A model generated the notes under the pieces. The model searched no databases, had not been told where the DNA came from, and saw only the letters and a program-made list of their open reading frames with translations. A program made the position numbers and the translations under genes. Shown here one piece after another: positions 3,178 through 59,930 of a DNA stretch of 64,000 nt. The stretch is from Candidatus Latescibacterota bacterium. Its GTDB lineage: Bacteria; Latescibacterota; UBA2968; UBA8231. Within the stretch, counting starts at the first letter, position 1; each line of letters starts with the position of its first letter. The stretch lies in contig OZ241362.1 in the NCBI GenBank assembly GCA_965200315.1, forward strand, positions 5,152,001 to 5,216,000, given 5' to 3'.

Positions 3178-4587
3178 TTATTTTTTAAAAAATGTCGCGA
3201 TGTCGTTTGGGTCCCAAAGGTAGAGGTGCGGGTCGCGGAGATTTTTGAGGGTGTTGGTAAAGCCGGATTTGGAGGTAATAAGATAAAAAGCGTTTGCAGT
3301 CGGGAGGTTTTGGGCGCGGTGTTTGAGGGTTTGCAAAACGTCGGTGCCAACAGGAGTGGATGTCCATTTGCATTCGACAAAGAGAGTTTGCCGGGTTTCG
3401 GAGTTGAGGGCGACGAGGTCTATTTCGCTTTGTCTGTCCCACCAGCGTCCGATTCGGTGAAAGTAGAAGGGGGCGCGGTTGTGAAGGTTGAGCTTGAGCA
3501 AAAGTTCTCGCGTGATATTTTCAAAGGCAAAGCCCATAAATTCCGCTACGCAGGTATTTAGGCGGTTGAGAAAATACGGAAAATTGCCTGATTCGTAGAT
3601 ACTCAATTGACGGTAGATGAATCGCATCCAGAAAGTGATAAAGGGATCGCGGATTTTATAGCGACTTTTTTTGGTTTTCCAGGATTGCTCAGTAATGGGC
3701 ACTTCGCGTTCGATGAGGTCAAACAAGTCAGACAATTCGCGCAGGTATTTGGACAAGCTAGTGGCCGGCAGTCCGGCGGGGCCGGCAATTTCAGAGCGGC
3801 GGGTTTTTCCAGTGGCGATGGCTTCGAGGATTGCCAAATAGGTGTGGGCAGTGCCGCCAAATTCGGAGAGGATGATATCTCGCATTTCATTGCGAAAGGG
3901 GGCAAAGGGGGTGAACAGTGCTTGATGGAGAATTTGGTGGATGGTGCTGCCGCCCAATCCCATGCTTTCTATAATTTCGTAATACCGGGGCATGCCGCCA
4001 AAGATGCCGTAAAGGGTAAGTACGTCTGTGGACGATTGAAAGCCGAGATCTGTAGCAATTTGATAGATGGCTTCGATGGGTAAAGGGCTGAGATCAACTT
4101 CCCGGGTGAGACGACCATAGAGGGGTTCTTTGGCGTCTTGGAAAACTTTTTTCATCAGGCCCACGACAGAACCTATGGCAATGAGATGTATTCTGGATTG
4201 TTTGTGCCATGTGTCCCACACGCCTTGGAGGATGGAATAGATGGCGGGATCGACAGTGAGAAAGTTTTGAAATTCATCGAAGACGACGATCAGGTGTCGG
4301 TGCTGGGTTTCGGCAAAGAGAAAAACGAAAAAATCCTGCCAACTTGTAAATGTGGGCGCGTGGGCAATGTGCGATTTGAGGGTAGCCGAAAATTCGGCGA
4401 GGAGGGCATTTGCAGGGCGTTTTTCAACAAAAAAATAGATGCCGCCATTCTGGATATGTTGGCGCACGAGTTCTGTTTTTCCCACACGCCGTCGCCCAAA
4501 GATCGCGGTGAACTGAGAAAATTGGGCCGATCTTTCGGTTAGGTCGCGAAGAAGTGTCAGTTCTGTTTCTCGGTCGTAGAATCTCAT
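3178..4587 (-). CDS. Archaeal-type AAA ATPase with wHTH and C-terminal DUF234 (PD-(D/E)xK-like) domain
   Basis: MRFYDRETEL, Walker A GRRRVGKT, Walker B FDEFQ, GGMPRY, RWWDRQSEIDLVA...ECKW. Lower GC than the flanks. Confidence 0.85.
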   Translation of the reverse strand: MRFYDRETELTLLRDLTERSAQFSQFTAIFGRRRVGKTELVRQHIQNGGIYFFVEKRPANALLAEFSATLKSHIAHAPTFTSWQDFFVFLFAETQHRHLIVVFDEFQNFLTVDPAIYSILQGVWDTWHKQSRIHLIAIGSVVGLMKKVFQDAKEPLYGRLTREVDLSPLPIEAIYQIATDLGFQSSTDVLTLYGIFGGMPRYYEIIESMGLGGSTIHQILHQALFTPFAPFRNEMRDIILSEFGGTAHTYLAILEAIATGKTRRSEIAGPAGLPATSLSKYLRELSDLFDLIEREVPITEQSWKTKKSRYKIRDPFITFWMRFIYRQLSIYESGNFPYFLNRLNTCVAEFMGFAFENITRELLLKLNLHNRAPFYFHRIGRWWDRQSEIDLVALNSETRQTLFVECKWTSTPVGTDVLQTLKHRAQNLPTANAFYLITSKSGFTNTLKNLRDPHLYLWDPNDIATFFKK

Positions 4588-7861: not shown

Positions 7862-8755
7862 CAATAACTCAAGTTGCTGCTCGCCCTTTGGAAGTGCTCG
7901 ATTCAGATTACGCATAAAGATGTTCCAGTTAGACGATGCCTTCATCAAGGCAGCAACGGCGGCCAGATGCTCTTTGAGCTTGGGGTGGCCCAGATCGGGT
8001 GTGAACCACTGGTGGTGCGTGTTGCGGCGACCCTTGCCGCTGGGGAGCGTAGGATTGACACGCCGCAGCTCGTCGAGGACGCCCGGCGCTAGGCGACTGT
8101 ACACAATGTCATTGGTGTAATGGCCTATTACGGACGGCCGCGCAACACCATTGGGGCCGGGCCAGCCCTTGAGGCGAAATATCTGATTGTAGAACTCGTA
8201 GGGAAATGTCTTGGTCCAAGGTTGAAACTCTTTGGCGATGAACTTCTCAAGAATGGTTGCAAGGGCGCGTTCTTCGCGTATGCGCTGGTAGCCCGTCGCC
8301 TCGTCCACAAGGGCAATTACGCCCACTGTGGCAAGGCTACGCATAAGTATCTCGGCCTGAACTGCGACATGAGCTTGATTAGGTAGCAGCATATTAGCAT
8401 CGCGGGCTTTGAGATACACTTCACAAACTTGGGGCAGTAGAATCGCATCATATCCAAGCGCAATTCTTCCTCCTGTTGGGAGTCTAAATCTAACCGGAGT
8501 TAGCGACTTGCTTAAAGTATTGGAAATGAATGGTTTAAGGCGTTCAGAGCGCAAAAAAGCGGGCAAGTCTGCGACTTGCTGCTCTGCTCCGGGGCCTGTA
8601 GGCTTGGGAGAACGCCCTAGTGCCTCTGAAAATCCTGCTTGAGTAAGAACGCGCGTTTCATCTTCCAGCACATAGCAAGGTATTTCAACTTCGCCGATTA
8701 CCAAAGGTCGATCTGGTGCTCCGGCGATTACTTTCAGCGGTTCCTGTTTGCTCAT
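7850..8755 (-). CDS. P63C domain protein (phage-associated)
   Basis: IPCYVLEDETRVL...VGVIALVDEATGYQ..RE..AL..IL..FIAKE..PWTKTFP.EFY..IFRL.GW...HHQW. Confidence 0.85.
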   Translation of the reverse strand: MSKQEPLKVIAGAPDRPLVIGEVEIPCYVLEDETRVLTQAGFSEALGRSPKPTGPGAEQQVADLPAFLRSERLKPFISNTLSKSLTPVRFRLPTGGRIALGYDAILLPQVCEVYLKARDANMLLPNQAHVAVQAEILMRSLATVGVIALVDEATGYQRIREERALATILEKFIAKEFQPWTKTFPYEFYNQIFRLKGWPGPNGVARPSVIGHYTNDIVYSRLAPGVLDELRRVNPTLPSGKGRRNTHHQWFTPDLGHPKLKEHLAAVAALMKASSNWNIFMRNLNRALPKGEQQLELLLED

Positions 8756-41049: not shown

Positions 41050-43374
41050 CTAGTAGGCCACGGCCACGATGCGTTGCACGCTGCGATCTCCAGTGTCGCC
41101 AGCGATGTGTAGCTCGGCTATGTAGAGGCCGGGCGACACGCGCTGGCCGCGCAGGTCGCGGCCGTCCCAGTGCCAGGCGATGTGGCCGGCTTGCCCAGCC
41201 CGCTCTTGGGCGAAAAGCAGCCGGCCGGACAAATCGTAGAGCCGCAGGTGCAAAGGGCGAGCGGAGAGCACGTTGATGAGGCTGAATGAAATGAGGAGTT
41301 GGTCGTTGATCCCATCGCCGTTAGGCGTAATGAGCGCGGGGCTGAAGGAGAGGCCGGCAAAAAGCTGGTCGGCGACGGGCAGGCGCACGACGTTGGAACT
41401 GCTCTCGACTTGGGGGGCAGCGTCGCCGGGGTCAACGAGTTGCCGCGTTTGCGCCTTTTGGCTGTCTTCTAAGAAGGCGTCGAAGCGGGTTGCCTGTAGG
41501 TAAATAGGGGCCGTAAAGCGGAGTTCGACGAGTTGGCGGCTGCGGATGCGGCGCGGAAAGGTGGCGCGAAAGCCCTGCGCGAGGGTATCGGCGACCACCT
41601 CGACAGGCTCGCCATCGACCAAGGCGGCGTCAAAGCGGGGGACGGTGGTGGCTTCAATGGCGATCTGGTCGAAGCCGTCTCGGGTCGTCGCAGGCCGCAG
41701 GAAGTAGGAAAACAGGGTCTCTTGGCCAGGCGCGACCTGAAGGGGGAACACTTCGCCGACGACCTCAGACGCCAGTGGATCGGAGAAGTTGACGGCCAGC
41801 GAGTTGAAGTGGGGAGCCTGCGTCGGACTGTCGGACACCAAGCGCACATCGAGTTCCATAAAGCGGCGCGGAGAAGGCGACTGGAAGACCGCGCCCGACG
41901 CGCTGTACATATTGCTCCAAGGGCTCCAGTCCGCCCCGGCAATGCGCGTGGTGTCGATCTTGCCCTTAAAACTGGGGATTAGTTTGTTGTAGCGCTTCTC
42001 GGTTACTTCTCTACCGTTTTTGTCGTAAAAAGTGTATTGCTCTACTATTTCGTTCCCCGTGCGCGAGCGGATTTCGACGTGGGTGCCTAAAGGGGTCTGG
42101 GCCTGCCAGTCAAGCGAGTTGAGGTTCTTGCCGCTGCCTAGGTCGATGAGCGGCGAGCGGAGACGGACCGCAAGGGGATAGCCCTCGCCGTACACTTGGA
42201 TTTCCTCGGCCGAGCCGTTGGCATAGCAGCCCCAGCGCGAGGAGGCGTCGGTCGCACTCGCGGCACAGGTGGCGTCCCAGATCAGCCAGGCAATGCGGAC
42301 GTAGCGGGCTGGTAGGGTGGGGAACTGGTGGTCGGCTAGCCCGGCTCTGTGGTTTTCGCTGTTGGGGAACCCGGCAAAGTGCCGCGTCCAGATGCGGGTG
42401 CCGTCCGGGGCGATGGTGCCGTCCGAGGTGAGGACCTCGTAATTTTTGTAGCTAAAAGAACGCGGACCGCTGGCCCCGGCTCGGGTGCGCAGCAGGTGTT
42501 CGCCAAAGCCGCCGCGGATGGCTATGCCGGTAATCAGGCGCACGAAGTCCACTGGATAGACGGCCCCTAAGTCGATGGTGATGTGGCTCCAAGTGTTGTA
42601 GGTGTTGCGCGGCTCGCGCCCGTTGCGCCAGCGGTTGAAGATCGAGCCATCGACTAGGTTTAGCGCGTTGCCCAAGGTGACCTCTTCGGCGCGGACAAAG
42701 GCGTCGATGACTATGTCGATAGCTCCGCCGCGCTCGACGAGGTTGAGGGTGAGATTGTCGCCGATGCTTTTGACCTCGACGGCGACGAGCCGGGCGTTGG
42801 GGACATGCTTGAGGTTGCGGATTTGCAGGTAGCGGATCGGCGTCAGGTAGAGCGCGTCGCCGGGGGCGAATGCGACGCGGTGGCGCGCGTTTTCCTTGAA
42901 GCGTTCCTTGATGCGGTAGATCAGGGAGCCTTCGACTGGATTGGCTACTTGGTCGAGTTGCGGCTCGCCGGAGGAGAGCAAGAGATCGAACAGCTCAAAG
43001 GGGGGCGCGGCGGCGGCGAAGACCAAGGCAATGCTATGCGCCGAGACGCTGCGGCCGAGGTCGATTTCCACAAACCAGTCGTCTGGATCGTCGGCCGGGT
43101 TGGGTGCCCAGCCGGTCGCTGGGTTGCCGTCGAGGAGTGCGTTGGCGGCGCTGGGATTGGAGCCGGCTCGGTGGATGCCGCCGCCTAAAGCTGTGGCGTC
43201 GAGCACGGCATCTACGCCCTTTTGGATGTGCATCGGTTGGATCGCTCCAGTAGACGCGATTTTGACTGCGCCCACTGGCACCTGCCAGTCGCGCCAATCG
43301 CGCACCGAGTCAAAGCGCAACTGATCGGCGTCAGCGGTGGCGACCAAGCAGAGAGACAAAAGGACGATGAACAT
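41050..43374 (-). CDS. Secreted protein with C-terminal TPNGDG/FlgD-Ig (T9SS type B-like) domain
   Basis: Signal peptide and discoidin-like IDLG repeats. Ends LITPNGDGIND...WDGRDLRG..VSPGLY...VAVAY. Confidence 0.8.
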   Translation of the reverse strand: MFIVLLSLCLVATADADQLRFDSVRDWRDWQVPVGAVKIASTGAIQPMHIQKGVDAVLDATALGGGIHRAGSNPSAANALLDGNPATGWAPNPADDPDDWFVEIDLGRSVSAHSIALVFAAAAPPFELFDLLLSSGEPQLDQVANPVEGSLIYRIKERFKENARHRVAFAPGDALYLTPIRYLQIRNLKHVPNARLVAVEVKSIGDNLTLNLVERGGAIDIVIDAFVRAEEVTLGNALNLVDGSIFNRWRNGREPRNTYNTWSHITIDLGAVYPVDFVRLITGIAIRGGFGEHLLRTRAGASGPRSFSYKNYEVLTSDGTIAPDGTRIWTRHFAGFPNSENHRAGLADHQFPTLPARYVRIAWLIWDATCAASATDASSRWGCYANGSAEEIQVYGEGYPLAVRLRSPLIDLGSGKNLNSLDWQAQTPLGTHVEIRSRTGNEIVEQYTFYDKNGREVTEKRYNKLIPSFKGKIDTTRIAGADWSPWSNMYSASGAVFQSPSPRRFMELDVRLVSDSPTQAPHFNSLAVNFSDPLASEVVGEVFPLQVAPGQETLFSYFLRPATTRDGFDQIAIEATTVPRFDAALVDGEPVEVVADTLAQGFRATFPRRIRSRQLVELRFTAPIYLQATRFDAFLEDSQKAQTRQLVDPGDAAPQVESSSNVVRLPVADQLFAGLSFSPALITPNGDGINDQLLISFSLINVLSARPLHLRLYDLSGRLLFAQERAGQAGHIAWHWDGRDLRGQRVSPGLYIAELHIAGDTGDRSVQRIVAVAY

Positions 43375-43385
43375 GGGTTAGACGC

Positions 43386-45818
43386 TCAGCGCAACAAGAG
43401 CAACTTGCGCACTTGGACCTGCTCACCAGCGCGCAGGCGATAAGTGTAAACGCCAGTGGCCAGTCGCTCACCAGCGTCGTTGCGCCCGTCCCAATGAGCA
43501 GTGTAGTACCCAACTGAGTGCCAGCCGCGTACGAGGCGGGCGACCTTTTGGCCGGCGAGGTTGTAAATGGCTAATTCGATGTCGGCCGCTTGCGGCAGCG
43601 CGAAGCCGAGGCTGCTGCTGCTGTTGAAGGGGTTGGGGACGTTTTGGGCGAGAGCTAAGGCAGCGGGTTGGTCCGTGCGGAACACTTCTGTGACGGCCGT
43701 CGGCACGTGCGGCGCGGCCGGAATGCGCGTCACTAGGCGCACATCGTCTAGGTAGAAGGTGCCCGTCATATTGCCCTCAAAGCGGAGGGCGTCGATCCAG
43801 TCCACTTGGTCGCGGAGGCCGGGGCCGTAGTGGTTGGGCTGGTCGAAGGCCGTGAAGGGGATTTCTAAGACCTGCCACTCGCGGCGCGAAAAGTCGAGAT
43901 GGAACTGCTCGGGATCGCGCGCCAAATCCACGCCAAGGCCGTCGATAAAGAGGACGAAGATGGGAAAGGTGGGCAGCTCGATGTCGCCGGGATGGAAGGC
44001 GAAGCGCACGCCAGCAAAACCGAGGGGATCGACGGGTGCGGTCGGACTAAATTCGATGGTCCACGGGGTGTAGAAGTTTTTGGGCTCCGCCTCGACCGCG
44101 ACGGTGCGGGTGCCGTAGAAGATGGGCCCCTCGCCTGTGACCTGCATTTGGGCACTGCTGTCGCCGACCAACTGCCAGTCGGCAGCTACGCGCTCGTCGA
44201 AAACGGACAAGTCCGGCGGCAGGAGGGTGATTTGGTGGATAAAGTCGATGCCCTTGAAAGCGCCATCGACCTCCTGTTCGAGGCGCACGACCACTTCGTA
44301 GAAGCCCTTGGGCAAGTTGGCGGTCTCCAAGCGGGTGTCGAGTTGGTAGGTCTGGTCGTCGAGAGCAACTAGCGGCAGGTCTGCCGGGCCGCCCAAGGAA
44401 CGTAGGTCTGCGGTTAGGCGCGGCGGTCCGCCGTCGGGGACGAGCCGTGCGAGGCGCACTGTGGCGTGGACTCGGAGCGCGTCGCCGATGGACAGGGTGT
44501 CGGGCATCTGGTGTTCCCACGAGCCGCCGATGGGACTGTAGGTGATTTTGATGACCAGTTCGTTGCGGTTATCGCTGGTGACGTATAGACTGCCCTCGGC
44601 GTCGCTGGCAAGCCCGACGGGGAATCCCCAGACATCGCCTTGCGTCTCGCCGGCTTGAAAGCCGGTGATAAAGCTGCCCATGCGGGCGTCGCTGCCATCG
44701 GGTTGGCTAAAGAGCGCGGCGACTAGGTAGCCGGGGTGCGACGAGAGCTTGGCTTTGCCGGCGCGGAAGGCGACGAAGGCGGCGTTGTGGTAGCGGGAGG
44801 GAAACTGGTCGCCGGTGTAGAAGTGGAGGCCCATGGGTGCGTAGTGGGCTGGGACCAAGGCCACCGGGCGTTTTTGGGTGGCGGCGAGGAGGCTGTCTTG
44901 GCGGGTGATGGGCAGTGCTTTTTCGTAGCCAGCAATGGTAAAGTCGCTCCAGACTTGGTGGCTGTGGACCAAAGGATAGCCCATAAAGTCTTGGTCGCCG
45001 ATGATGTCAATCCACTCCGGTGGGCGCGTGCGGCCTTCGAGGTCGTGGCCGTTGTGATTGGCCCACAGCTCATTGGTCTGCGGGTGGAAGTCCATGCCGA
45101 TGGTGTGGCGGATGCCAGTGGCAAAGATGCGGCGACCGCGGCCGTCGGGATTGAATTGCAAGATGGTGCCGCGCTCGGGGTGGTGAGGCACGGGGTTGTT
45201 GGTGTTGCCGACGACCTGAAAGCCCGCGTCCATGCGGCACAGGTCGCAGGGTGAGCCGACCGACAGATACATTTTGTCGTTGCGGCGATCGACGACGAGG
45301 GTGCGGGTATCGTGCCAACCCTCCGAAGGAACGTCGGGCAGGACGACTTCTTCTTGTTCGTATACTAGGTCGCCATCGGTGTCGCGCACGCGGATGACTT
45401 GGTGTTCCTCGGCGACGTAGAGCGCGTCTTTGTAGAACAGGAGGCTGTGGGCTTCTCTGAGGCCGCGCAGGGCGATGATGCGCTCGTCGGCCACGCCATC
45501 GCGATTGCGGTCGGGCAGGGCGACGATCTGGCCAGCGCCCATGTTGGCCACGTGCAACACGCCATTGGGGTCAAAGGCCATAAAGCGGGGTCTGCGCAGG
45601 CCCTCGTGGGCGAAGACGCGGGCCGAGAAGTGAGGGGGAAGGTTGAGCACCAAGCCTTGGGGCACGGCACCACGAAAGGCTTCGGGCACAATGAGTGGGG
45701 TCGGCTGCAAGCCCAGATCAACTTCGGGGACTAGCGTCCCAGCGGGGTAGCCTTCGTCTTGGGCCAGCCCGGCAGCGGCGAAGCGGAGAGCGAAGGCGAA
45801 TGATATGACGATGTACAT
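43386..45818 (-). CDS. Secreted PQQ-dependent sugar/sorbosone dehydrogenase-like protein with FlgD/T9SS type A-like C-terminus
   Basis: H.TRTL, SVGSPCD.C, FATGIRH..G, AHYAPMGL.FY. Ends QNVPNPFN...WDGRND.GERLATGVY.YRL...KLLLLR. Confidence 0.85.
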   Translation of the reverse strand: MYIVISFAFALRFAAAGLAQDEGYPAGTLVPEVDLGLQPTPLIVPEAFRGAVPQGLVLNLPPHFSARVFAHEGLRRPRFMAFDPNGVLHVANMGAGQIVALPDRNRDGVADERIIALRGLREAHSLLFYKDALYVAEEHQVIRVRDTDGDLVYEQEEVVLPDVPSEGWHDTRTLVVDRRNDKMYLSVGSPCDLCRMDAGFQVVGNTNNPVPHHPERGTILQFNPDGRGRRIFATGIRHTIGMDFHPQTNELWANHNGHDLEGRTRPPEWIDIIGDQDFMGYPLVHSHQVWSDFTIAGYEKALPITRQDSLLAATQKRPVALVPAHYAPMGLHFYTGDQFPSRYHNAAFVAFRAGKAKLSSHPGYLVAALFSQPDGSDARMGSFITGFQAGETQGDVWGFPVGLASDAEGSLYVTSDNRNELVIKITYSPIGGSWEHQMPDTLSIGDALRVHATVRLARLVPDGGPPRLTADLRSLGGPADLPLVALDDQTYQLDTRLETANLPKGFYEVVVRLEQEVDGAFKGIDFIHQITLLPPDLSVFDERVAADWQLVGDSSAQMQVTGEGPIFYGTRTVAVEAEPKNFYTPWTIEFSPTAPVDPLGFAGVRFAFHPGDIELPTFPIFVLFIDGLGVDLARDPEQFHLDFSRREWQVLEIPFTAFDQPNHYGPGLRDQVDWIDALRFEGNMTGTFYLDDVRLVTRIPAAPHVPTAVTEVFRTDQPAALALAQNVPNPFNSSSSLGFALPQAADIELAIYNLAGQKVARLVRGWHSVGYYTAHWDGRNDAGERLATGVYTYRLRAGEQVQVRKLLLLR

Positions 45819-49132: not shown

Positions 49133-49224
49133 AAGGAGCTGTTAGATTTGCAGAGAACAACGTACCAAAAAAACGCCGCGTGTGCATGAGGGCGGCCCGG
49201 CCCGAGAAAGTCTATCAGATCAAT

Positions 49225-51768
49225 ATGTTGAGCAACATAGTCCAATCGCTACGAGTATGGGTCCGGTGTCTATGGCATCGAAGAACCCATGCGTCCCAAA
49301 AAAAAGCAAATTCCTATCCATTTTCGGAATCTCAGGTCCCTGCGAGAGAGTCGCCGGAAGTCCCCCAAGAGTTGACTCCACCTACAAAGTGGAGACAGCG
49401 CAAACCTGACACAGATAGCTTGGAGAGCGATCACACTACGGAAGTGGCAGACTGTGCTGAAGAGGATAATCCGCAGGCAGGGCCAGGGGGCCCTTATTCA
49501 GTGGACGCCAAACCCGAAGAGGACAACCACAAGACTGTATCTGATAGTCGGAACGCTGCTGACGAAGAGCCCAATGATGACGAGTTCGCCAAGTCCGGCC
49601 AAGTTCCCATAGAAATCGAACCGGTCACGCCAAGCAGTACCGGTTCAGAAAAGACACCTTCCGATCCGCCGGAAGATGCACTTTTGGAGCTGGATTCGTC
49701 TTTGGCACAACCTGCCGAAGCTCGCGAAAACGTACCTAATAGCAATGCCGACGTCGGCGATTCATTGCAGCCCGACTTGATCGCCCTGCCTCCTGAGCCA
49801 CCGAAGAAGGCCGAACCGCCTGAAGACAACGCTCGCATTGAGAATTCAGCTTCTCTGGAGAACAAGGGGAAGAAACAAAATCGAAGTCAAAAGTCCCCAC
49901 GTAGAATAGGCGGAAGGCGAAATGGACCGACACAGTCCCCATCGCCAGTCGATGACGATGCTAAGGACGAGCCAACGTTTACACCTTGCCCGGAACTCAT
50001 CTGCCGCAAGGCTTCTGGGGCTTGGCAGTGGGAGGTCGTGTTGGCTGTGGATGCCGAATGCAACATCATGGGAGTTCGGCACGATGGCGAACCTCTGGAT
50101 ATGGTGAACGGCGAATACAGTCTTTCGGCCTTGGCTGGCAGCTTGTCTATTGACTACGAAGATCGCGAATCGGATCAGTTGCCGTTGTTCGACGACAGGC
50201 CGCTGATCTTCAAGATGCCGAACGATTGGAATGGTGCTGGTCCCAAGGTAGGCGGCATCACCAGTGGATACTTCATCGTTATGGTCCCGAGGGAGTGGAA
50301 ACGCACGGGGAGCGCACCTGTTGCGCCGGAGAAATGCACGGACGCGAACTTCATGGCGCATTTTTTCTATATGGAGAAAGGCGGTCCGGCGGGAGATGTA
50401 GGCGGGTTCGAGGATTGCGATCTCGAATTGACCAAAACCGGCTTTGAGTTGGACGGGGACCGTGTCTTTGACGATTGTGAAAACGGCGAGTTATTCGTTG
50501 GTGATCCGCCAAGGCTGTGCCCTGCCTCAGGCATTGTGTGGGCGCGGATCGGCGAAGAAAAGACGGGCGGATGGAAAGGAGAGAACTTCAAGCCGGCCGA
50601 GCAATCTCTTGCGGAGGTTTTGAATGGCCGCCAAGGGCGATTCTTTGTCCGTGTTTACGACGATGGCGCGAAGTTGCTAGACAGTGGCGAGTTTCGCTAT
50701 CTGCGCGACCTCCGGGCGATTCGCGTGAATGATGAACCGCACTCTGCGAATACACTGCTCGTCCCGTCCTCAACAGGATATTCGTCGGCAAAGGTACAAT
50801 TCGTCAGTGCTGACGGCACTGCCATCCAACCAGACCTCGACACCGCCGGAACCCATGCAACCGTGCAGTCGGAAGGCACTCTTATAGTTGCGCCGCATCC
50901 GGATGGGGATCGCATATCGTGTGTCTTGCCGGCCGGTGCGGACCGCGTCGATACCGTCATCAAACTACCGCGCATTTGGTGGCAGATGAAGCAAGATGAT
51001 GGGGAGGCCGACGAATGGCGCGACAGGCCCTTGGCGATGAGTCGGCAGGAGTTTCGCCACTTCGAGGATGCGGCGATTCGATTGCGCTTGCCGCTGCGCG
51101 TTTCATCGGTCAAGGTGGGGTTCAGCGAGGAACTGGACCGGACCTATCGCCCCCAAAAGAATGGAGATAACACGGAGGCTGAGATACGTTTGTCCGACTT
51201 TATCGACTACGATCAGATTGACCAACGGCTGAACGAGGATGCTTTGCTCAATATTCAATGCGGCACAGAGGTAATGGCACTCATCCGTGTTTCTGCCGAT
51301 TCCGTACCGACGATCACAACTTTCAGGTCGGAACCGATGGTGGTCAAAATCGGCGAGACAGCTACATTGCACTGGGCCACCCAAAATGTGGAGTTGGATG
51401 GCGTTGTTGTTGTTATTGAACCTGAAATCGGCTCGGTGGAATCGAGCGGCAGCCAAACGGTCAAACCCACTGAAACCACTACTTACACGCTGAGACTGAG
51501 AGCTCCAGGCATAGAGGACGTGGAGCAAGCCGTTACTGTGGCAGTAAAGGCACGACCGCTGACAGAGGAGGAGCTATTTGCGCGGGTCAAGTGTGCGAAG
51601 TGTGCAGGTGGGGCTTGGCGACCAGGCGCAGGCTTCAGCCGCGGCGAGCTTTATGCCGCCGGTCTAACCAATGCGGACGCGATGCGCAGGTCCATCCCCA
51701 CCGATAGACGCCGCCGGAGTACGCATTTAGCCAACATAGACACCATCAAGAGGTTTATTGATGTCTGA
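49225..51768 (+). CDS. Hypothetical protein: acidic disordered N-terminus, beta-rich core, Ig-like repeat, C-terminal ribosomal eL13-like motif
   Basis: C-terminus WRPGAGFSRGELYAAGLTNADAMRRSIPTDRRRRSTHLANIDTIKRF. Stop overlaps the helicase start. Confidence 0.75.
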   Translation: MLSNIVQSLRVWVRCLWHRRTHASQKKANSYPFSESQVPARESPEVPQELTPPTKWRQRKPDTDSLESDHTTEVADCAEEDNPQAGPGGPYSVDAKPEEDNHKTVSDSRNAADEEPNDDEFAKSGQVPIEIEPVTPSSTGSEKTPSDPPEDALLELDSSLAQPAEARENVPNSNADVGDSLQPDLIALPPEPPKKAEPPEDNARIENSASLENKGKKQNRSQKSPRRIGGRRNGPTQSPSPVDDDAKDEPTFTPCPELICRKASGAWQWEVVLAVDAECNIMGVRHDGEPLDMVNGEYSLSALAGSLSIDYEDRESDQLPLFDDRPLIFKMPNDWNGAGPKVGGITSGYFIVMVPREWKRTGSAPVAPEKCTDANFMAHFFYMEKGGPAGDVGGFEDCDLELTKTGFELDGDRVFDDCENGELFVGDPPRLCPASGIVWARIGEEKTGGWKGENFKPAEQSLAEVLNGRQGRFFVRVYDDGAKLLDSGEFRYLRDLRAIRVNDEPHSANTLLVPSSTGYSSAKVQFVSADGTAIQPDLDTAGTHATVQSEGTLIVAPHPDGDRISCVLPAGADRVDTVIKLPRIWWQMKQDDGEADEWRDRPLAMSRQEFRHFEDAAIRLRLPLRVSSVKVGFSEELDRTYRPQKNGDNTEAEIRLSDFIDYDQIDQRLNEDALLNIQCGTEVMALIRVSADSVPTITTFRSEPMVVKIGETATLHWATQNVELDGVVVVIEPEIGSVESSGSQTVKPTETTTYTLRLRAPGIEDVEQAVTVAVKARPLTEEELFARVKCAKCAGGAWRPGAGFSRGELYAAGLTNADAMRRSIPTDRRRRSTHLANIDTIKRFIDV

Positions 51769-54700
51769 TGCAAACGACATACGACAATGGCCTGAGAAGA
51801 TTCGCCAACGTTATGAAAATTATCTGAAGACCTCCTTCTACTTCAAAGATCCGAGCCTGCGGAAATCCTTCCAAGCCGCGCTGAAGGAGGAAGGCAGTCT
51901 ATTGAAGGGTCCGTTTCCCGAACCGGCCCGTGGCTTCAAACAGGGCCTGAACGCAAGAGCGTTGGCACAGGAGTGTTTTCCTGACCAAATCGAAGGTCTT
52001 CTCCCGGCGCTGATTGACCGGCCGTTGTACGTGCATCAAGAGTGCGCGATCCGAGCCACGTACCAAAATCAACAGAACATCGTCGTCGCCACCGGCACCG
52101 CCAGCGGCAAGACCGAGAGTTTCCTCTACCCGATTCTATTTGAGTTGTACCGTCAGCATCTAGCTGGCAAACTGCGGGAGCCGGGGGTGCGGGCGATGAT
52201 CCTGTACCCGATGAATGCACTCGCCAACGACCAGCGCGAACGCCTTGGAAACATCTGCAAGGACTTGAGCGAAGCAGCGTCGCGATTCAAACCTACGTTC
52301 GGCCAGTACATCGGGCAGACGCCCGAAGATAGTAAAGACAACAGGCGCAATGCCGCTGCACGGGACGAGGAACGCTTGCCTGGCGAATTGGTCTTCCGCA
52401 AGGAGATGCGAGACGCGCCGCCGCACATCCTGTTGACCAACTACTCCATGCTGGAATACCTGCTCATTCGTCCCGACGACAGCCCGCTGTTCGACGACGG
52501 TCGGGGTACGCGCTGGCAGTTCATCGTGCTCGACGAGGCGCACCAATACCGCGGTGCCAAGGGCATGGAGATGGGCATGCTGATCCGGCGTCTCAAGCAG
52601 CGGTTGCGCGCTGGCGGTCGCAAAGATTCGTTTCGCTGCATCGCCACCAGCGCGACCATTTCCTCCGGCGAGGGAGAGGAAGACAAGCAAGCTGTGGCGG
52701 ATTTTGCCGAAGCGCTCTTTGGCGAACGCTTCTCGGTGCCAGGGATCATTTTTGGGGAATCTGAGCAGACAAGCAAAGACGGACGCCCGCGGCGTTATCA
52801 CGCCTTCCTGCGAGCACTTGAAGGAGCATTTCTGGTTCACAGAGAGGGGGCGGATGCCGTTGTGTTGAACCGCAAAGGCGTGATGGAGGACGGCTCCACT
52901 GCGGAACCGTTGGAAGTCGCGCTGTGCCGCGAGTGCGGGCAGCACTACTACGTTGGTCGGGAGAGAGGCGGAAAGCTGCAAGAGGCAGTCCGCGACCCCA
53001 GCCAGTCGGATTTTGGCGTGGACTACTATCTGCCATTGGAGGGAGCAACGCACGTTTTGTGTAGGCGCTGTGGTGCGCTCTCCCCATCCGGTCTCACATG
53101 CGGTTGCGGAGCGGCAATTCGCGTCAAGAAATGCAAATCTCACGAGGAGCATCCCGACCAACTCAAGCAATGCGAGACCTGCGGCTATCAACGCGGCGGC
53201 ATCGGCGATCCCGTGCAGGAGATCATTCACGGTTCTGACGGTCCTAATGCGGTCATCGCGACGGCTTTGCACGAGTTGCTGCCGGAAAACGGGCGCAAGG
53301 TGCTGGCTTTTGCCGACAGTCGGCAGGAAGCGGCGTTCTTCGCGTGGTACGCGGAGGACTCTTACGAGAAGGTTCGCGACCGCAATCTGATGTTACGTGC
53401 GCTGAGAGAGGGGCCGGTTGATCGGGAAGCCCTGTCCATTGACGACATCAAGAACCGGTTGCTCAAACAATGGGATTGGGCTGGCCTGTTTAAAGGATCA
53501 GATACTACGGAGAGCAAAAACCGCAGGGTGCTAGTAGCGATCTTTCGCGAAGCACTGACGGATGAGAGAAGGCTGTCTCTGGCTGGTGTCGGTTTGGTCA
53601 AGTGGTACGTCAAGATTCCTGATAACTTGACATTACCCCGAGCAATGAGAAATCCGCCGTGGAATCTCACGGACGAGGAAGCGTCCGGTCTGATAGGGTA
53701 CCTTTTGGACGAGATGCGCCTGCACCGCGCCATGGCTTTGTCGGAAAGCTCCGAAGCTCCGGCATGGAGCGATGTTTCGCCGTGGCCCCAACAAGCCTAC
53801 GGTTTGGGGCGACCCGGCAAACGGCGGCATGTCTCCGAGTGGGGCGGCTCCCAATCCGCAATCGTGAAGCACTTCCTTCACAGGTTGCTTGCAGGCAGTG
53901 GGCTGCCCGACGATAAGAAGCAGGTGAAATCAGAGGAGCTCATGAAGGATATATGGTGCGCACTGCGCGGCCATGCTGACGAGCCCATTCTTTGCCGAGA
54001 AAAGACGAACGGGACGTTTCGTCTCAACCCGCGCTGGTTGCGTATTAAGTTTGCCGCTCCCGATGAGATTTGGGAATGCAGTACCTGCGCTACGCTGACC
54101 CCTCACAACATTCGCCAAGTCTGTCCTAGAAATAAATGCCCCGGCTTCTTGATTCCGGCCGATCACACACGCCTTGAGGAAAATCATTATCGAATTCTTT
54201 ACGAAAGCACTGACTTGCCGCCCGTCCTGCGCTCGGAGGAGCACACCGCGCAGATCGAGAGCGACGAAGCGCGTCGGAGACAGGATTGTTTCAAGAACGG
54301 AAAGACGCACCTCCTCAGTTCCTCGACTACATTTGAAGTCGGAGTTGATCTAGGCGATCTAGAGGCTGTGTTCCTCCGCAATGTGCCGCCGGAGCCATTC
54401 AACTATACTCAGCGCGTCGGGAGGGCGGGACGCCGAGAGACACCGGGGCTCGCTCTGACCTACTGTCGTCGCAATCCGCATGATCTCTACCACTACGAAG
54501 ATCCCAAGAATCGCGTAATCGAAGGCAAGGTGCGGCCGCCGCGATTGCAGATGAAGAATGCGAAAATCATCGTCCGGCACATGGTCGCCACTGCCTTGTC
54601 TGCGTTTTTCAAGACTGTAGAGAATAGGGAACGTTTTAGGAACGTAGAAGCATTCATCGGAAATTGGTCGAATCCGTGCGCTGTATCCGACCTAAAGCAA

Positions 54701-55993
54701 TTCTGCGAGGATAACGATGTGTTGAGGGACTCTCTGAGCCGGATCGTGCCGCAGGATATGCGCGAAGAGACTGGCCTTGCCAGCGATGATTGGATTGACC
54801 AGATAGCTGGGCCGCAAAGCCGATTCGCCGATGTAGAAGCGGAAGTGTGCGCGGATTATCGCGAAATGGAGAAGTTCCGGCTGAAACTGTTCAATCAGCA
54901 TAAAGGAACAAACAGAGTCGAAGCTCGCATGAAAACCATTGCCGGCGAGCAGACTTTGAACTTCCTGTCGCGCAAGGCAGTCATTCCCAAATACGGCTTT
55001 CCCGTGGATGTCGTCGAGCTTGATACTCGTCCCCAGGTCGGCAACCCAACGGGTATATCACTTCAGCGTGATTTATCCCAAGCCATCGCCGAGTACGCGC
55101 CTGGCGGCAAGGTGGTGGCAAACAAACTGGAATGGGAATCTTGCGGGATCAAGAAGATTCCCGGGAAGGAATGGTCGATCCGTCATTACGAATACGATGA
55201 TGCTGATGCGCGTAACTTCAAGCAATGGAATGAAGGTGCCTTGCCCGAGCCCGAGCCCCACAATAGTAGAAAATACCTTATCCCGGAGTTCGGTTTCGTA
55301 ACGCCGCTGTTCACGAAACCCAAGGAACCGCGTGGACGAGTACAGCGCCTATATACGACTCGGCCGTTTTTCCAAGGCTTCGAAAAAAATGACCAACCCG
55401 ACCCCAAGAACATCCTCGGCGTACAAGTTACCAAGGCTCGGCCCGGAACTTTGGTCATCCTGTGCGAAGGCTGGAACAGAGGGGGGTTCTATATCTGCCT
55501 CTCTTGTGGCACTCACAAGACGAAATCAAAAGGGATTCACAAATCCCCTTCGGATTCCGAATGCTCCGGTCCCTTAGCCCAGTTCTCGCTTGGCCACGAA
55601 CTGGTCACGGACGTCGTGCGCTTGCAATTTCCTCAGCTAACAGGCGAGTGGGAAGCCTATTCGGTCGCCTACGCGGTCCTGCTCGGCGCAGCCGAGACCT
55701 TGGACGTACCGGATGCGGATCTAAATGTGACGATTACCGGCAGCACTGGGGAATCCGCAATAGTGCTCTACGACAACGTGCCGGGCGGCGCGGCACTGGT
55801 CGCACAACTGGAACAGGAGAGCGTCTTCAAGGAGATGCTCCGCAACGCACGGCAACGGGTTCAGGGCAATTGCGGCTGCGATTCGAGCTGCTACGGCTGC
55901 TTGCGGAGCTATCGAAATCAATTCGCCCATCCGCGCTTGGATCGGAAGAAGGCACTGGAGGCACTGGCGATCTTGGACACCCGCGTTGGGTGA
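51758..55993 (+). CDS. DEAH-box SF2 helicase with Zn fingers and C-terminal DUF1998 (DruE/MrfA-like)
   Basis: TGTASGKTE, YPMNALANDQ, LDEAH, SAT, AFADSRQ, STTFEVGVDLG, QRVGRAGR, LYDNVPGGA...CGCDSSCYGCLRSYRNQ..H..LDR. Confidence 0.92.
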   Translation: MMSDANDIRQWPEKIRQRYENYLKTSFYFKDPSLRKSFQAALKEEGSLLKGPFPEPARGFKQGLNARALAQECFPDQIEGLLPALIDRPLYVHQECAIRATYQNQQNIVVATGTASGKTESFLYPILFELYRQHLAGKLREPGVRAMILYPMNALANDQRERLGNICKDLSEAASRFKPTFGQYIGQTPEDSKDNRRNAAARDEERLPGELVFRKEMRDAPPHILLTNYSMLEYLLIRPDDSPLFDDGRGTRWQFIVLDEAHQYRGAKGMEMGMLIRRLKQRLRAGGRKDSFRCIATSATISSGEGEEDKQAVADFAEALFGERFSVPGIIFGESEQTSKDGRPRRYHAFLRALEGAFLVHREGADAVVLNRKGVMEDGSTAEPLEVALCRECGQHYYVGRERGGKLQEAVRDPSQSDFGVDYYLPLEGATHVLCRRCGALSPSGLTCGCGAAIRVKKCKSHEEHPDQLKQCETCGYQRGGIGDPVQEIIHGSDGPNAVIATALHELLPENGRKVLAFADSRQEAAFFAWYAEDSYEKVRDRNLMLRALREGPVDREALSIDDIKNRLLKQWDWAGLFKGSDTTESKNRRVLVAIFREALTDERRLSLAGVGLVKWYVKIPDNLTLPRAMRNPPWNLTDEEASGLIGYLLDEMRLHRAMALSESSEAPAWSDVSPWPQQAYGLGRPGKRRHVSEWGGSQSAIVKHFLHRLLAGSGLPDDKKQVKSEELMKDIWCALRGHADEPILCREKTNGTFRLNPRWLRIKFAAPDEIWECSTCATLTPHNIRQVCPRNKCPGFLIPADHTRLEENHYRILYESTDLPPVLRSEEHTAQIESDEARRRQDCFKNGKTHLLSSSTTFEVGVDLGDLEAVFLRNVPPEPFNYTQRVGRAGRRETPGLALTYCRRNPHDLYHYEDPKNRVIEGKVRPPRLQMKNAKIIVRHMVATALSAFFKTVENRERFRNVEAFIGNWSNPCAVSDLKQFCEDNDVLRDSLSRIVPQDMREETGLASDDWIDQIAGPQSRFADVEAEVCADYREMEKFRLKLFNQHKGTNRVEARMKTIAGEQTLNFLSRKAVIPKYGFPVDVVELDTRPQVGNPTGISLQRDLSQAIAEYAPGGKVVANKLEWESCGIKKIPGKEWSIRHYEYDDADARNFKQWNEGALPEPEPHNSRKYLIPEFGFVTPLFTKPKEPRGRVQRLYTTRPFFQGFEKNDQPDPKNILGVQVTKARPGTLVILCEGWNRGGFYICLSCGTHKTKSKGIHKSPSDSECSGPLAQFSLGHELVTDVVRLQFPQLTGEWEAYSVAYAVLLGAAETLDVPDADLNVTITGSTGESAIVLYDNVPGGAALVAQLEQESVFKEMLRNARQRVQGNCGCDSSCYGCLRSYRNQFAHPRLDRKKALEALAILDTRVG

Positions 55994-56024
55994 CCGCCTC
56001 TGGCCAGCTAGTGAGGTACAAAAG

Positions 56025-56888
56025 ATGATGCCCCCGCGTTTCTTCAATGAACACAAAAGGAGGGATCCACTGAAGTCTTTAGATCAGCCTACCGGAGCCG
56101 CTTGGCGGCCCGTTAGGCCAGACGAGTGCGCCGACCCGCTTGGCGCCTTGGCCCGGGCGGAGATACCGGCGATTCTGCTGCCCCAAGTTTGCACGCCAGC
56201 CGATTGCCAGCGGCTGATGGAGCGCTTTGGCGAGCGCGGGTTGCTGCGCACCCCGGGCGACCAGCGCTCGCGCATCGACATTGGCACCAGCCTCGGCAAC
56301 ATGGGCGGCGACCAAGAGGCATTCCTCGCTCATGCCGAGGAGACGGCCGCGCTTTTTGCCACCCTCTTCGCGGGTCTGCTCGACCCGGTGCAGCTGCTCT
56401 ATCGGCACTTGCAGGCGCTGGCGCCCAACAAGGCGGTTAAGACAGCGCGCGAGCGCGACGGGCGCTTGTACGGCCCGGCCATCTTTCGCATCCACTACGA
56501 GACCCATTCCTATAGTCCGCACATCGACCACGTAGTTCTGCGCGAAAAGCGATTCAACTACGAGGTAGCGCGCTTTACCCACCAATTTGCCGGTGTGCTG
56601 TGCGTGCAGAACGCGGATTCTGCGGGCCCTGGGGTGCAGGCGGTGTTGCACCGTTGTCTGTGGACCGAGGAGATACAGCCGCATATCGCCGAAGGCCGTT
56701 TTCACGAGTATGCGGCCGCGCATGGCGTGGAGCACTGCGAGGTCGCGCTCGCGCCGGGCGATTTGTATTTCTTCAATACGCGCTGCATCCACGAGGTCCC
56801 AGCGGTGCAGGGGCGCGATCCGCGGGTGGTGCTCGCCGTCTTCATTGGCTATGCCGACGACGACGACGAAATCTACGTGTGGTCTTAA
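56025..56888 (+). CDS. 2OG-Fe(II) oxygenase superfamily protein (start uncertain)
   Basis: PHID (HxD), PGDLYFFN..CIHEV....R. Confidence 0.7.
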   Translation: MMPPRFFNEHKRRDPLKSLDQPTGAAWRPVRPDECADPLGALARAEIPAILLPQVCTPADCQRLMERFGERGLLRTPGDQRSRIDIGTSLGNMGGDQEAFLAHAEETAALFATLFAGLLDPVQLLYRHLQALAPNKAVKTARERDGRLYGPAIFRIHYETHSYSPHIDHVVLREKRFNYEVARFTHQFAGVLCVQNADSAGPGVQAVLHRCLWTEEIQPHIAEGRFHEYAAAHGVEHCEVALAPGDLYFFNTRCIHEVPAVQGRDPRVVLAVFIGYADDDDEIYVWS

Positions 56889-56891
56889 CTC

Positions 56892-57986
56892 ATGCTGCCG
56901 TTCACGCGCATCGTCCGCGCCCTGCCGCCGACCATTCCCTTTGTGCCGCCCGAGGTGCTGGAGAGGGAGCAGGGACAGCCGCTCGCCCTGCGGGTTGGAG
57001 CTAACGAGAGCAATTTCGGGATCTCGCCGAAGGCGCGGCAGGCCATGGTGGAGGCGGTGGATCAAGTGCATTGGTACAACGACCCGGAGGGATACGAGCT
57101 GCGCTCGGCGCTGGCAGCGCGGCACGGGGTAGCGCGGGAAGAGGTCGTCTTGGGCGCGGGCATTGACGAAATTTTGGGACTGCTAGTGCGCCTGTTTGCC
57201 GAGCCGGGCGACTCAGTGGTGACGTCGCTAGGGGCCTATCCCACATTCAACTACCATGTCGAGGGGCACGGGGCGGTATTGCACAAGGTGCCCTATCGAG
57301 CGGATCGGGAGGATTTGCCGGCCCTGTTGGCCAAGGCGCGGCAAGTGCGCCCCAAGCTGCTTTATGTGGCCAACCCGGACAACCCCATGGGCACCTATCA
57401 GCGAGCCGACGAGTTGCGGGATTGTATCGCGGAGTTGCCGCCGGATTGTGTGTTCTTGCTCGACGAGGCGTATATCGACTTCGCCCCGGCGGATGCGCTG
57501 TTGCCGCTAGAAGTAGAACGGGCCCAGGTGGTGCGGTTGCGGACGTTTTCCAAGGCGCACGGCATGGCCGGGGCTAGGGTCGGCTACGCGCTGGCGCACC
57601 GCGATTTGGTGGCCGCGCTCAACAAGGTTCGCAATCACTTTGGAGTCAACCGCGTCGCCCAAGCCGGGGCACTTGCTTCGCTGAGCGACGACGAGTTTGT
57701 GCGCTCGGTGGTGCGGCAAGTGGAGGAAGGTCGGCGGGAATATGTGCAGCTAGCCACGGAATTGGGGCTGAAAACGGTGCCTTCGGCGACGAATTTCGTG
57801 GCACTCGACGTGGGCTGTGGCGAGTGTGCGCGCTGCCTGATGCAGGTGCTTTTGCAGCACGGGGTCTTCGTGCGGATGCCGGGCGTGGCTCCGCTCGACC
57901 GCTGCATCCGGCTGACCGTGGGGCCAAAAGCCGAGCGGCAAGCCTTTGCGAAGGTCTTGCGCGAGGTGTTGCCGCAGATTAGATGA
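56892..57986 (+). CDS. Class I/II PLP aminotransferase (HisC-like)
   Basis: GANES, ANPDNPMG, LDEAY, RTFSKAHGMAGARVGY. Confidence 0.9.
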   Translation: MLPFTRIVRALPPTIPFVPPEVLEREQGQPLALRVGANESNFGISPKARQAMVEAVDQVHWYNDPEGYELRSALAARHGVAREEVVLGAGIDEILGLLVRLFAEPGDSVVTSLGAYPTFNYHVEGHGAVLHKVPYRADREDLPALLAKARQVRPKLLYVANPDNPMGTYQRADELRDCIAELPPDCVFLLDEAYIDFAPADALLPLEVERAQVVRLRTFSKAHGMAGARVGYALAHRDLVAALNKVRNHFGVNRVAQAGALASLSDDEFVRSVVRQVEEGRREYVQLATELGLKTVPSATNFVALDVGCGECARCLMQVLLQHGVFVRMPGVAPLDRCIRLTVGPKAERQAFAKVLREVLPQIR

Positions 57987-58574: not shown

Positions 58575-59930
58575 ATGACTACCGACCTAGCACTTCTCCA
58601 CCGCGACCCGCAATACACCTACCCGGTTCTCGTCAAGGGCGAGGGGATTTACTTATACGACGAAGCGGGCAATCGCTATATCGACGGCACGGCCGGGGCT
58701 GGCAACGTCACCCTAGGCCACGGTCGTCATGCCATCGTCGAGGCTATGGCCGCTCAGGGAAGGGAATTGGCCTATTGTTTTTCGACGTTTTTTACCAACC
58801 CTCCGGCCCTTGAATACGCCCGCCGCTTGGCCGAACTGGCCCCCGGGGATTTGAACCACGCGTACTTTGTCTCGGGTGGCTCCGAAGGCGTGGAGACGGC
58901 CATTAAACTGGCCCGCTTGTACCATCTGCAGCGGGGCCAAGCGCAAAAGCACCAGATCATCGGTCGCTGGCGCGGCTATCACGGTGCTACTTTGGGGGCC
59001 TTGGCCGCTACCGGGATGCCGGGGCTGCGGGTGCCTTTTGAGCCATATCTGCCAGCTTTTCCGCACATTGCCTCGTGCTATCCTTATCGCTGCGCTTTTG
59101 CCGGTTGCGAAGATCGCTGCAATTTGACCTGTGCCCGTCAGTTAGAAGAGACCATCGCGAGGTAGGGGCCGACAATATCGCGGCCTTTATCGCCGAGCCG
59201 GTGGTCATGGCCGGGGTCGCCGCTGGGGTACCGCCGCCCGATTACTACCCTCTCATTCGCCAAATCTGCGCCGAGCCACGACGTCCTTTTTATCGCCGAC
59301 GAGATCATCACCGGCTTTGGCCGCACCGGCAAACTCTTTGCCATTGAGCATTGGGACGTAGTGCCCGATATGATCGTTTTTGGCAAAGGGGCCAGCAGCG
59401 GATACGCGCCCTTGGGAGGGGTGTTGCTGAGCGAACAGATGCGGCGGGGCCTCACCCGCAGCGGCCAAGCCCTGCCGCACGTTTTTACCTATGTCAACAA
59501 CCCAGTAGCCATGCGCGCTGGCTTGGCCGTACTGGACCTGCTAAAAGAAGAAGGGATCGTGCAACACGCCGCTCAGGTGGGGGCCTATTTGCAGGAAAAG
59601 GCCCCGAGCTTGACGCGCCACGCTTGCGTCGGCCAAGTGCGCGGCAAGGGCCTGATGCTGGGGATTGAACTGGTGCAGGATCGCCGCAGTCGCAAGCCCT
59701 TTCCCCCTGAGTGGGGCGTGGCGCAGCGCGTGCCTCTGCTTGCCTTGGAACGGGGCTTGGCTATTTCGGGCACTAGCGGGGGAGCCAATTGGGTTGCGGG
59801 CGATGATTTGCGCTTTTACCCGCCGCTGATCATTGCGCAGGAACAGCTCGACGAGTCCCTAGCTATCATGGACGAGTGTTTGGGATTGCTGGAAGAGGAA
59901 CTGCGGCAAAAGGGCTGGGTGCCAGCCTAG
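58575..59930 (+). pseudogene. Class III aminotransferase with two frameshifts
   Basis: GEGIYLYDE..YIDG, SGGSEGVE, YHG; then AFIAEPV in another frame; then IADEIITGFGRTG, FGKG back in the first frame. Shifts are near 59157 and 59276. Confidence 0.8.

Follow-up and report, generated by a model that had tools for sequence, protein, structure and literature searches.

An archaeal-type eL13 domain fills a replaceable C-terminal slot in the multi-Ig partner of a bacterial DruE-like helicase

In a 64,000-nucleotide stretch of the genome of a Candidatus Latescibacterota bacterium (contig OZ241362.1, positions 5,152,001 to 5,216,000 of the forward strand; hereafter the window, with positions counted from its first letter), a plus-strand gene at 49180..51768 encodes a large protein whose fused C-terminal domain is truly homologous to the ribosomal protein eL13 in its short, archaeal-type form; bacterial ribosomes lack eL13. 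The gene is the accessory (sensor-position) gene of a two-gene cassette with a DruE-like helicase, represented by at least 249 homologues and 53 genome loci, and the cassette is a DruE system of the Druantia type whose partner is modular and of a different family; we hold the identity of the tail and its defence context, taken together, with high confidence. The C-terminus of the partner protein is a replaceable slot, most often filled, as it was ancestrally, by the eL13-like tail.

The open reading frame (ORF) of the partner lies in frame +1, starts with GTG and encodes 862 residues, its translation ending ...EELFARVKCAKCAGGAWRPGAGFSRGELYAAGLTNADAMRRSIPTDRRRRSTHLANIDTIKRFIDV*; the database form has 860 residues, counted from the ATG at 49186, and many relatives begin at the equivalent of M16. 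A preliminary description of this DNA, made from the letters alone, had quoted a peptide as eL13-like, and this peptide is indeed found at the C-terminus of the ORF, but the start given for it, 51575, is off by one, since the codon phase begins one base earlier, at 51574. The tail covers approximately aa 799-862 (51574..51765, plus strand), is net basic and has the order beta-beta-helix-helix-helix, as judged from hidden Markov model (HMM) and profile searches, an AlphaFold2 (AF2) model and the alignment.

When a 74-residue piece with the tail was compared with Pfam, Ribosomal_L13e (PF01294) was the sole match below E = 0.1 (E = 1e-4, 22.7 bits), so that the window tail by itself remains slightly under the gathering score of 24.9 bits. 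This shortfall is what one would expect if the resemblance were due to chance, or if a separate small gene had been read through by error as a fusion, but the remaining evidence makes such an explanation negligible. All of the 38 eL13-type tails cut from the loci match PF01294 at E ≤ 0.01 (best 2.1e-10), and a phmmer search of the PDB with the 74-residue piece gave 47 distinct sequences at E ≤ 10, 46 of them eL13 (best 9e6q_AH, 1.3e-5) and the other a pentapeptide-repeat protein. With a profile of the whole family, 72 PDB sequences were found at E ≤ 1, the best 60 of the 72 being eL13 throughout; the top match is eL13 of Pyrobaculum calidifontis (4e-8, 35 bits), and the best eukaryotic chains score ∼25 bits. 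An AF2 model of aa 702-862, built from a 31-sequence alignment, has a mean predicted local distance difference test score (pLDDT) of 90.2, with 80-95 in the tail, and folds as an immunoglobulin (Ig)-like sandwich followed by two short strands and three helices. Foldseek aligned the last ∼60 residues of this model with eL13 from yeast (pre-60S and 60S), C. elegans, mammalian and Pyrobaculum ribosomes (root-mean-square deviation 1.9-3.5 Å over 63-77 columns, 27-32% identity, E = 1.5e-3 to 8e-3); the matches that rank above these are Ig domains aligned to the first half of the model. The tail is moreover in frame and free of stop codons in 156 of 186 sequences, by a motif-based count. Significant matches to L13e having been found by both HMM and structure, the eL13 homology proposed in the preliminary description stands.

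An alignment of the 38 tails has G20, F21, S22, E25, D44, R47 and H51 invariant and G18, R46 and N54 nearly so, and the core common to the tails and eL13 reads R-x-G-x-G-F-S-x-x-E-L...A-G-L...I-x-x-D-x-R-R-R...N; G-x-G-F-S, E-L, D-x-R-R-R and N keep the spacing of the eL13 consensus. The tail therefore shares with solved ribosomal eL13 both the conserved core and the predicted fold, and differs from it in being the C-terminal domain of a 600-900-residue bacterial protein rather than a free ribosomal protein, and in the His three residues past RRR(S/T), which is invariant in the tails and partly shared by standalone forms. Inserts inside the eL13-like tail are seen at three loci: that of L017 repeats the FDDSExGxLFVG motif of the partner core, L051 has ∼60 extra residues and L066 ∼17.

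A search of a 5.8-billion-protein collection with a tail-only profile returned six small proteins, one of which (P0124) is a fragment of the partner family; the other five (P0125-P0129) are standalone PF01294 proteins of 61-90 residues (E = 1.1e-15 to 1.2e-13) that can be aligned gap-free with the tails over the whole length, which means that the tail is a whole short-form eL13 and not a piece of one. A single-sequence search with the tail among short proteins had yielded one fragment only, the alignment profile being the more sensitive probe. One of the five standalone clusters has a member named Candidatus Aenigmarchaeota archaeon, the other four clusters being unnamed; together with the best match in Pyrobaculum, which scores 35 bits against 25 for eukaryotes, this favours an archaeal donor, as far as sequence can tell, and fits the transfer from archaea suggested in the preliminary description. 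The window's own genome has a single PF01294 match and no second L13e-like copy, and 14 control genomes have no match; the cassette tail was likewise the only copy in the five other carrier genomes that we searched, the next matches having E values of at least 0.066. Across 168 genomes of the phylum, the tail profile matches one, the window's own.

The carrier of the tail is, as the preliminary description had supposed, a non-ribosomal bacterial protein, namely the multi-Ig partner of a DruE helicase; neither this defence setting nor the exchangeable nature of the C-terminus is mentioned in that description. Its core (aa 272-702; 49993..51285, plus strand) is predicted to be all-beta and acidic, with several beta-sandwich or Ig-like domains (AF2 pLDDT 90.6, predicted template-modelling score 0.84), and has a median net charge of -19 across the family. 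No catalytic family was recognised in the core, and Foldseek of the core model returned generic multi-Ig arrays only, at template-modelling scores below 0.2, with no DruH chain among PDB entries to 8 April 2026. Between core and tail lies a single Ig-like beta-sandwich (aa 703-790; 51286..51549, plus strand), defined by AF2 strands at 9-88 of the model and by Foldseek Ig matches; it is kept in most members and missing from L040, L042, L043, L047, L048, L053, L054 and L058. In P0006 (1366 residues), the Ig domain and a proline-rich linker occur in many tandem repeats flanking the core on both sides, which is either a real expansion or an assembly artefact.

Directly downstream, and overlapping the partner's stop by 8 nt, an ORF of ∼1410 residues from the ATG at 51761 (51761..55993, plus strand) encodes a compact DruE-like helicase of the YprA/MrfA family. 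PADLOC assigns it to DruE1 (1.8e-157) and DruE3 (2.3e-154), and Pfam finds DEAD (5e-18), Helicase_C (1.5e-10) and MZB/DUF1998 (3.2e-12) domains; no phospholipase D (PLD) nuclease domain was detected in the helicase by Pfam, the last domain, MZB, reaching aa 1382 of 1411. A same-strand DruE match directly follows the partner in 50 of the 53 genome loci, the others being L011, L030 (at a contig end) and L060 (partial), and the DruE of L023 is fragmentary. Across phyla, the DruE proteins of other loci are 63-83% identical to that of the window. Going by these sequence matches, we class the cassette as a Druantia type III-like two-gene defence cassette with a conserved, translationally overlapping multi-Ig partner.

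In Druantia III, DruE is paired with one partner, the Ig-rich DruH, and the III-B branch is described as having a compact DruE that lacks PLD domains (10.64898/2026.05.13.724758; 10.1101/2025.09.15.676423). The present cassette shares with Druantia III the two-gene operon and a large, Ig-rich, non-enzymatic-looking partner that is encoded directly upstream of DruE and overlaps it. The PLD nuclease domains found at the C-terminus of DruE in III-A are absent from the window's DruE by Pfam, and this helicase, judged by its domain content, would fit the PLD-less, III-B-like branch. The partner itself is shorter than DruH, lacks the N- and C-terminal helical domains of DruH, is not detectably related in sequence to E. 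coli DruH and, unlike the Druantia III partner, carries a swappable tail derived from ribosomal or RNA polymerase (RNAP) proteins. It matches no PADLOC model at E ≤ 10, and DruH (the STY4851/YjiT family) was considered as its identity and rejected on sequence grounds, given a probability of 0.6% when the core profile was aligned by hhalign with the DruH of an annotated E. coli plasmid, and a BLASTP E value of 0.58 against this DruH (III-B DruH lies outside this comparison). DruH has been reported both as a 3'-5' exonuclease (10.64898/2026.05.13.724313) and as a scaffold (10.64898/2026.05.13.724758).

Compact DruE-like helicases also follow overlapping partners on a Clostridium butyricum plasmid (L062; partner of 1069 residues) and on an R. 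solanacearum megaplasmid (L063; 470 residues). Neither of these two partners is recognised by PADLOC or by our core profile, and hhalign of the core profile against the C. butyricum one gave a probability of 0.2%. DruE thus seems to pair with several unrelated partner families.

The 53 loci come from Latescibacterota (the closest), Acidobacteriota, Alpha- and Gammaproteobacteria, Rhodothermota, Chloroflexota, Gemmatimonadota, Spirochaetota, Binatota, Thermodesulfobacteriota, Verrucomicrobiota, Bdellovibrionota and others. Within the window's own phylum, partner matches occur in 5 of 168 genomes, one of them a 33-residue fragment only, and a tree of the cores interleaves phyla and is scrambled relative to taxonomy. 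Patchy presence and a mismatch between tree and taxonomy are the pattern of a horizontally moving accessory system, and the cassette has been spread by horizontal transfer across more than 10 bacterial phyla. A scan of viral contigs with alignment patterns of the partner found no relative. Many of the carriers come from lineages typical of the microbiomes that marine sponges host (Poriferihabitaceae, SAR202/Dehalococcoidia, Dadabacteria, Binatia, Latescibacterota); were the carriers indeed sponge-associated, the cassette would circulate within one habitat.

To take a census of the C-termini, we classified the tails of 120 of the at least 249 homologues and of 70 loci by motif regular expressions, four (L043, L056, L059 and L079) being added to the eL13-like class by eye and the 38 locus tails being confirmed by HMM. 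Among 186 sequences with a near-complete core, a number that includes duplicates between the protein and locus sets, 156 have an eL13-like tail (152 by regular expression, 4 by eye), 9 a tail of type A, 5 of type B and 2 of type D; the rest comprise 2 uS17, 2 uS5, 2 winged-helix-like, 1 omega, 1 'S6-like', 1 Ig-repeat and 5 truncated tails. Counted as 169 distinct cores, 148 carry the eL13-like tail and 21 another. In a FastTree phylogeny of these 169 cores (SH-like support; the 5 truncated tails, P0006 and identical cores left out), the 21 non-eL13 cores nest within eL13 clades with at least 8 changes of label, and uS17 appears at two separate places; L081, L078 and L044/L076 sit on long branches, which makes the number of independent swaps approximate. 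In a Thermoanaerobaculia genome (OZ243982.1), two cassettes are present, L023, with the fragmentary DruE, and L056, whose tail is degenerate and has lost the RRR motif; the tails of L059 and L079 are degenerate in the same way.

Pfam confirms the named replacements: uS17 in P0064 (5.9e-32) and L044 (1.3e-28), both domains of uS5 in L080 (4.9e-29 and 4.2e-30), and omega in L024 (RNA_pol_Rpb6, 4.6e-9, 36.6 bits against a cut-off of 26). Neither Pfam nor the PDB has a match for type A, a K/R-rich basic coiled coil, for type B, or for type D (P0024/P0027), and no family was matched by the winged-helix-like tail of L049 and L052 or by its host paralogues. Two guesses made by eye, 'L29-like' for type A and 'HARE-HTH/RNAP delta-like' for the L049/L052 tail, were unsupported by the searches and were dropped. 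The turnover is fast even among close relatives, in that no two of the four carriers from the window's genus share a tail type: the window has eL13, L009 type B, L010 type A and L008 type D, provided that L008, L009 and L010 belong to the same-genus genomes, as we infer. L008 has an in-frame TAG in the GRQGRFF motif of the core (at 3980) and a DruE frameshift (at 8600) near aa 1165-1273, and its cassette is probably pseudogenised.

How the tails were exchanged can be read from what was left behind. In L024, L049, L052, L009 and L010, untranslated 3' remnants of the eL13 sequence lie between the new stop codon and the DruE start, that of L024 reading ...TPIDKRRRSAHQRNIEMLGRLMDA in another frame and those of the other four being shorter; the last eL13 codons so retained contain the overlapping DruE start. 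From the eL13 remnants behind the inserts it follows that eL13 is ancestral and that its coding sequence took up the other tails as insertions. The eL13 tail has thus been repeatedly displaced by whole small proteins, among them uS17, uS5, omega, a winged-helix-like host protein and K/R-rich tails.

What the diverse fillings have in common bears on the function of the slot. Of nine tail types, seven have a clearly basic net charge (medians of +8 for eL13, +15.5 for S17, +18 for type A, +12 for type B, +14 for type D, +7 for S5 and +6 for the winged-helix-like tail), the exceptions being omega (-12) and the doubtful S6-like tail (+2). Types B and D, like type A, are rich in K and R. eL13, uS17 and uS5 are rRNA-binding protein families. 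E. coli DruH is reported to bind single-stranded DNA through K1067, H1062, R1064 and R1031 near its C-terminus (10.64898/2026.05.12.722862), a surface that is likewise basic and at the same end of the protein as the tail, although it belongs to another fold and family and nucleic-acid binding by the tail is something that we infer. Given the basic tails, the rRNA-binding families and the basic single-stranded-DNA-binding C-terminus of DruH, we rank first, at a probability of roughly one half, the reading in which the tail would be a basic adaptor of the sensor subunit for nucleic acid or ribonucleoprotein. The tail would bind a polyanion, RNA or single-stranded DNA, and would anchor the sensor subunit on the nucleic acid or ribonucleoprotein, and DruE would then be recruited or licensed at that place. 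In the carrier bacteria themselves, the tail is not a ribosomal protein.

Several observations weigh against such an adaptor. The omega tail of L024 is acidic and fits a theme of machine subunits better than one of charge, and omega is not a nucleic-acid binder; this objection may be softened by the state of the L024 cassette, which may be decaying, its DruE being frameshifted within the first ∼30 codons, a lesion that could be either decay or a sequencing error. The S6-like tail of P0119 is unconfirmed, with a Pfam E value of 0.019 only and no S6 match in the PDB search. Ribosomal proteins are basic anyway, so that charge cannot separate an adaptor from a bait or a tether, and the lack of detectable homology to DruH means that its biochemistry is transferred here by analogy only. 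In P. aeruginosa, finally, the C-terminal helical domain of DruH is reported to contact the stalk of DruE (10.64898/2026.05.13.724313), which makes a docking role possible for the C-terminus.

Taken further, this last point would make the tail a DruE-docking or purely structural element that contacts the helicase or folds back on the partner's own core and binds no nucleic acid; a basic tail beside an acidic core could indeed serve as an intramolecular latch. We consider this improbable, because DruE remains 63-83% identical across loci while the tails are exchanged for unrelated folds, and a single conserved docking surface is unlikely to fit them all.

The provenance of the replacement tails raises another possibility, namely that the slot displays an integrated bait: phage proteins that attack the ribosome or RNAP would bind or modify the tail, and the sensor and DruE would thereby be switched on. 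It draws support from L024, the freshest of the replacements, where the omega tail is identical to the product of the same genome's rpoZ at 97 of 97 residues, and where L024:8709-9019 matches the host gene (L085) over 311 nt at 97.7% identity, with 7 mismatches that are silent within the 97 codons. The copied segment begins ∼11 nt ahead of the ATG, extends 9 nt beyond the stop codon and sits in frame inside the eL13 tail. Near-identity combined with seven silent differences marks it as a recent copy of the host gene and not an assembly artefact. The L049/L052 tail likewise has standalone paralogues in the same genomes (48% and 39% identity), and no second copy of types A and B was found in theirs. 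That unrelated whole proteins sit at one position of a conserved immune partner, that one genus has four tails among four carriers, that the partner core evolves faster than DruE (mean column identity 48% against 74%, with 52% in the tail), and that DruH has been argued to be the likely phage-protein sensor of Druantia III (10.64898/2026.05.12.724681) all agree with a bait.

The architecture recalls the integrated decoys of plant nucleotide-binding leucine-rich repeat receptors, (PMC11702601), in which one site of a conserved immune component receives unrelated domains that are copies of host proteins, with fast turnover of domains between close relatives. Here eL13, uS17, uS5, omega and at least four unnamed tail types occupy the same C-terminal position, and we tentatively entertain a bacterial counterpart in which captured archaeal eL13, bacterial uS17 and uS5 and host omega would be shown as bait or anchor; if true, phage DNA would not be all that the system senses, and its charge would be to guard the cell's machinery of gene expression. 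The likeness goes no further than architecture. The dominant eL13 is foreign to the host and cannot copy a host target: with no counterpart in bacterial hosts, it leaves 148 of the 169 members with nothing to mimic. In L044, whose DruE is intact, the S17 tail is only ∼44% identical to the host's own S17 over 109 aligned residues; the sole exact host copy, omega, sits in the locus with the frameshifted DruE; and the absence of non-synonymous changes from that copy is only modest evidence for constraint on it (p ∼ 0.04 by our own estimate, if half of the 7 differences arose in an unconstrained copy). For the uncultured hosts, neither a phage nor a phage factor directed at these proteins is known. 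On balance we regard a bait as unlikely.

A further reading starts from the completeness of the replacements. uS17, uS5 (with both its N and C domains) and omega are full-length and above the Pfam cut-offs, and all of the identified replacement subunits are fused through their N-terminus; eukaryotic homologues of these protein families naturally carry N-terminal extensions. The tail might accordingly dock on, or assemble into, the ribosome or RNAP and park the sensor-DruE pair there, to be released upon infection. E. coli DruE and DruH are reported to associate with host proteins, which infection displaces (10.64898/2026.05.13.724758), and this agrees with a tether of this kind. Such a tether can be pictured for the bacterial subunits but less obviously for eL13, for which bacterial ribosomes have no known site and which is nevertheless the ancestral filling and has spread through more than 10 phyla. 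In addition, no subunit family is matched by tails A, B and D, which are unnamed. We think it less likely still than a bait, and the basic adaptor remains the reading that we put first.

The N-terminal region of the partner (49180..49992, plus strand) consists, by translation, of a short amphipathic start (LSNIVQSLRVWVRCLW) followed by a stretch rich in P, E, D and S, with 'x' throughout the consensus; judged by eye, this poorly conserved segment is of low complexity and probably disordered. The amphipathic stretch LSNIVQSLRVWVRCLWHRR at 49225-49290 (aa 16-37) is also found in the divergent members P0058 and P0064, and BLASTP weakly aligns the window's N-terminal stretch with the N-terminus of E. 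coli DruH (VNPLLQWLNMFFSRRS; L064:4558-7914), an alignment that is not significant alone. About 25 residues N-terminal of the folded core, the alignment consensus reveals a short linear motif, PRRIGGRR in the window (49897..49920, plus strand; consensus PRxIGGRR), which precedes the core in most of the 53 loci (L008-L060) within the otherwise unconserved low-complexity region and could be a docking peptide for DruE or another ligand.

The cassette differs in composition from its surroundings: its GC content is 0.54-0.60, that of the flanks 0.63. The upstream neighbour, encoded on the minus strand, is a YdjM-family membrane protein; downstream are a WelO5-like dioxygenase and aminotransferases, and the flanking genes look like ordinary chromosomal genes. 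The WelO5-like Fe/2-oxoglutarate enzyme (55986-56888) starts 8 nt before the DruE stop and is followed by a class I/II aminotransferase (56892-57986); as the GC content is back to 0.63 at these genes, they probably belong to the chromosome and not to the cassette. A class-III aminotransferase further on is split into two ORFs, 58575-59165 and 59361-59930 (Pfam positions 11-184 and 252-403), which could reflect a frameshift, a pseudogene or a sequencing error. The minus strand at 41050-45818 encodes two large secreted proteins, both with C-terminal sorting domains of type IX secretion (CHU_C/Por_Secre_tail); F5/8 type C domains are present in one and a glucose/sorbosone dehydrogenase-like beta-propeller in the other. 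No tRNA was found at 40-64 kb of the window and no Rfam family anywhere in it, and scans for promoters and terminators gave results at or below the level of shuffled sequence.

Automatic Pfam labels place PF01294 on about a quarter of the listed homologues, so the bare domain match is already in the databases. In the papers that we searched by term, we found no link between L13e, or other ribosomal or RNAP subunit domains, and Druantia or DruE partners, although supplementary tables may list the domains. What appears to be new is the recognition that the family partners DruE, the derivation of its tail from a short archaeal eL13, and the behaviour of the slot with its insertion remnants.

Druantia is a widespread phage-defence system whose mechanism is just being elucidated in the 2026 DruH-DruE preprints, with the role of the partner subunit as the open point. 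The family described here is a clear case of an archaeal/eukaryotic-type ribosomal protein domain in bacteria, carried over more than 10 phyla by a defence cassette, and shows how insertion, leaving a remnant, can replace a domain at a gene's 3' end where the stop codon overlaps the start of the following gene. It also amounts to a natural experiment, in which one conserved helicase is combined with a fast-evolving multi-Ig partner whose last module has been swapped for proteins of known binding behaviour (eL13, uS17, uS5 and omega), so that the function of the partner is directly testable.

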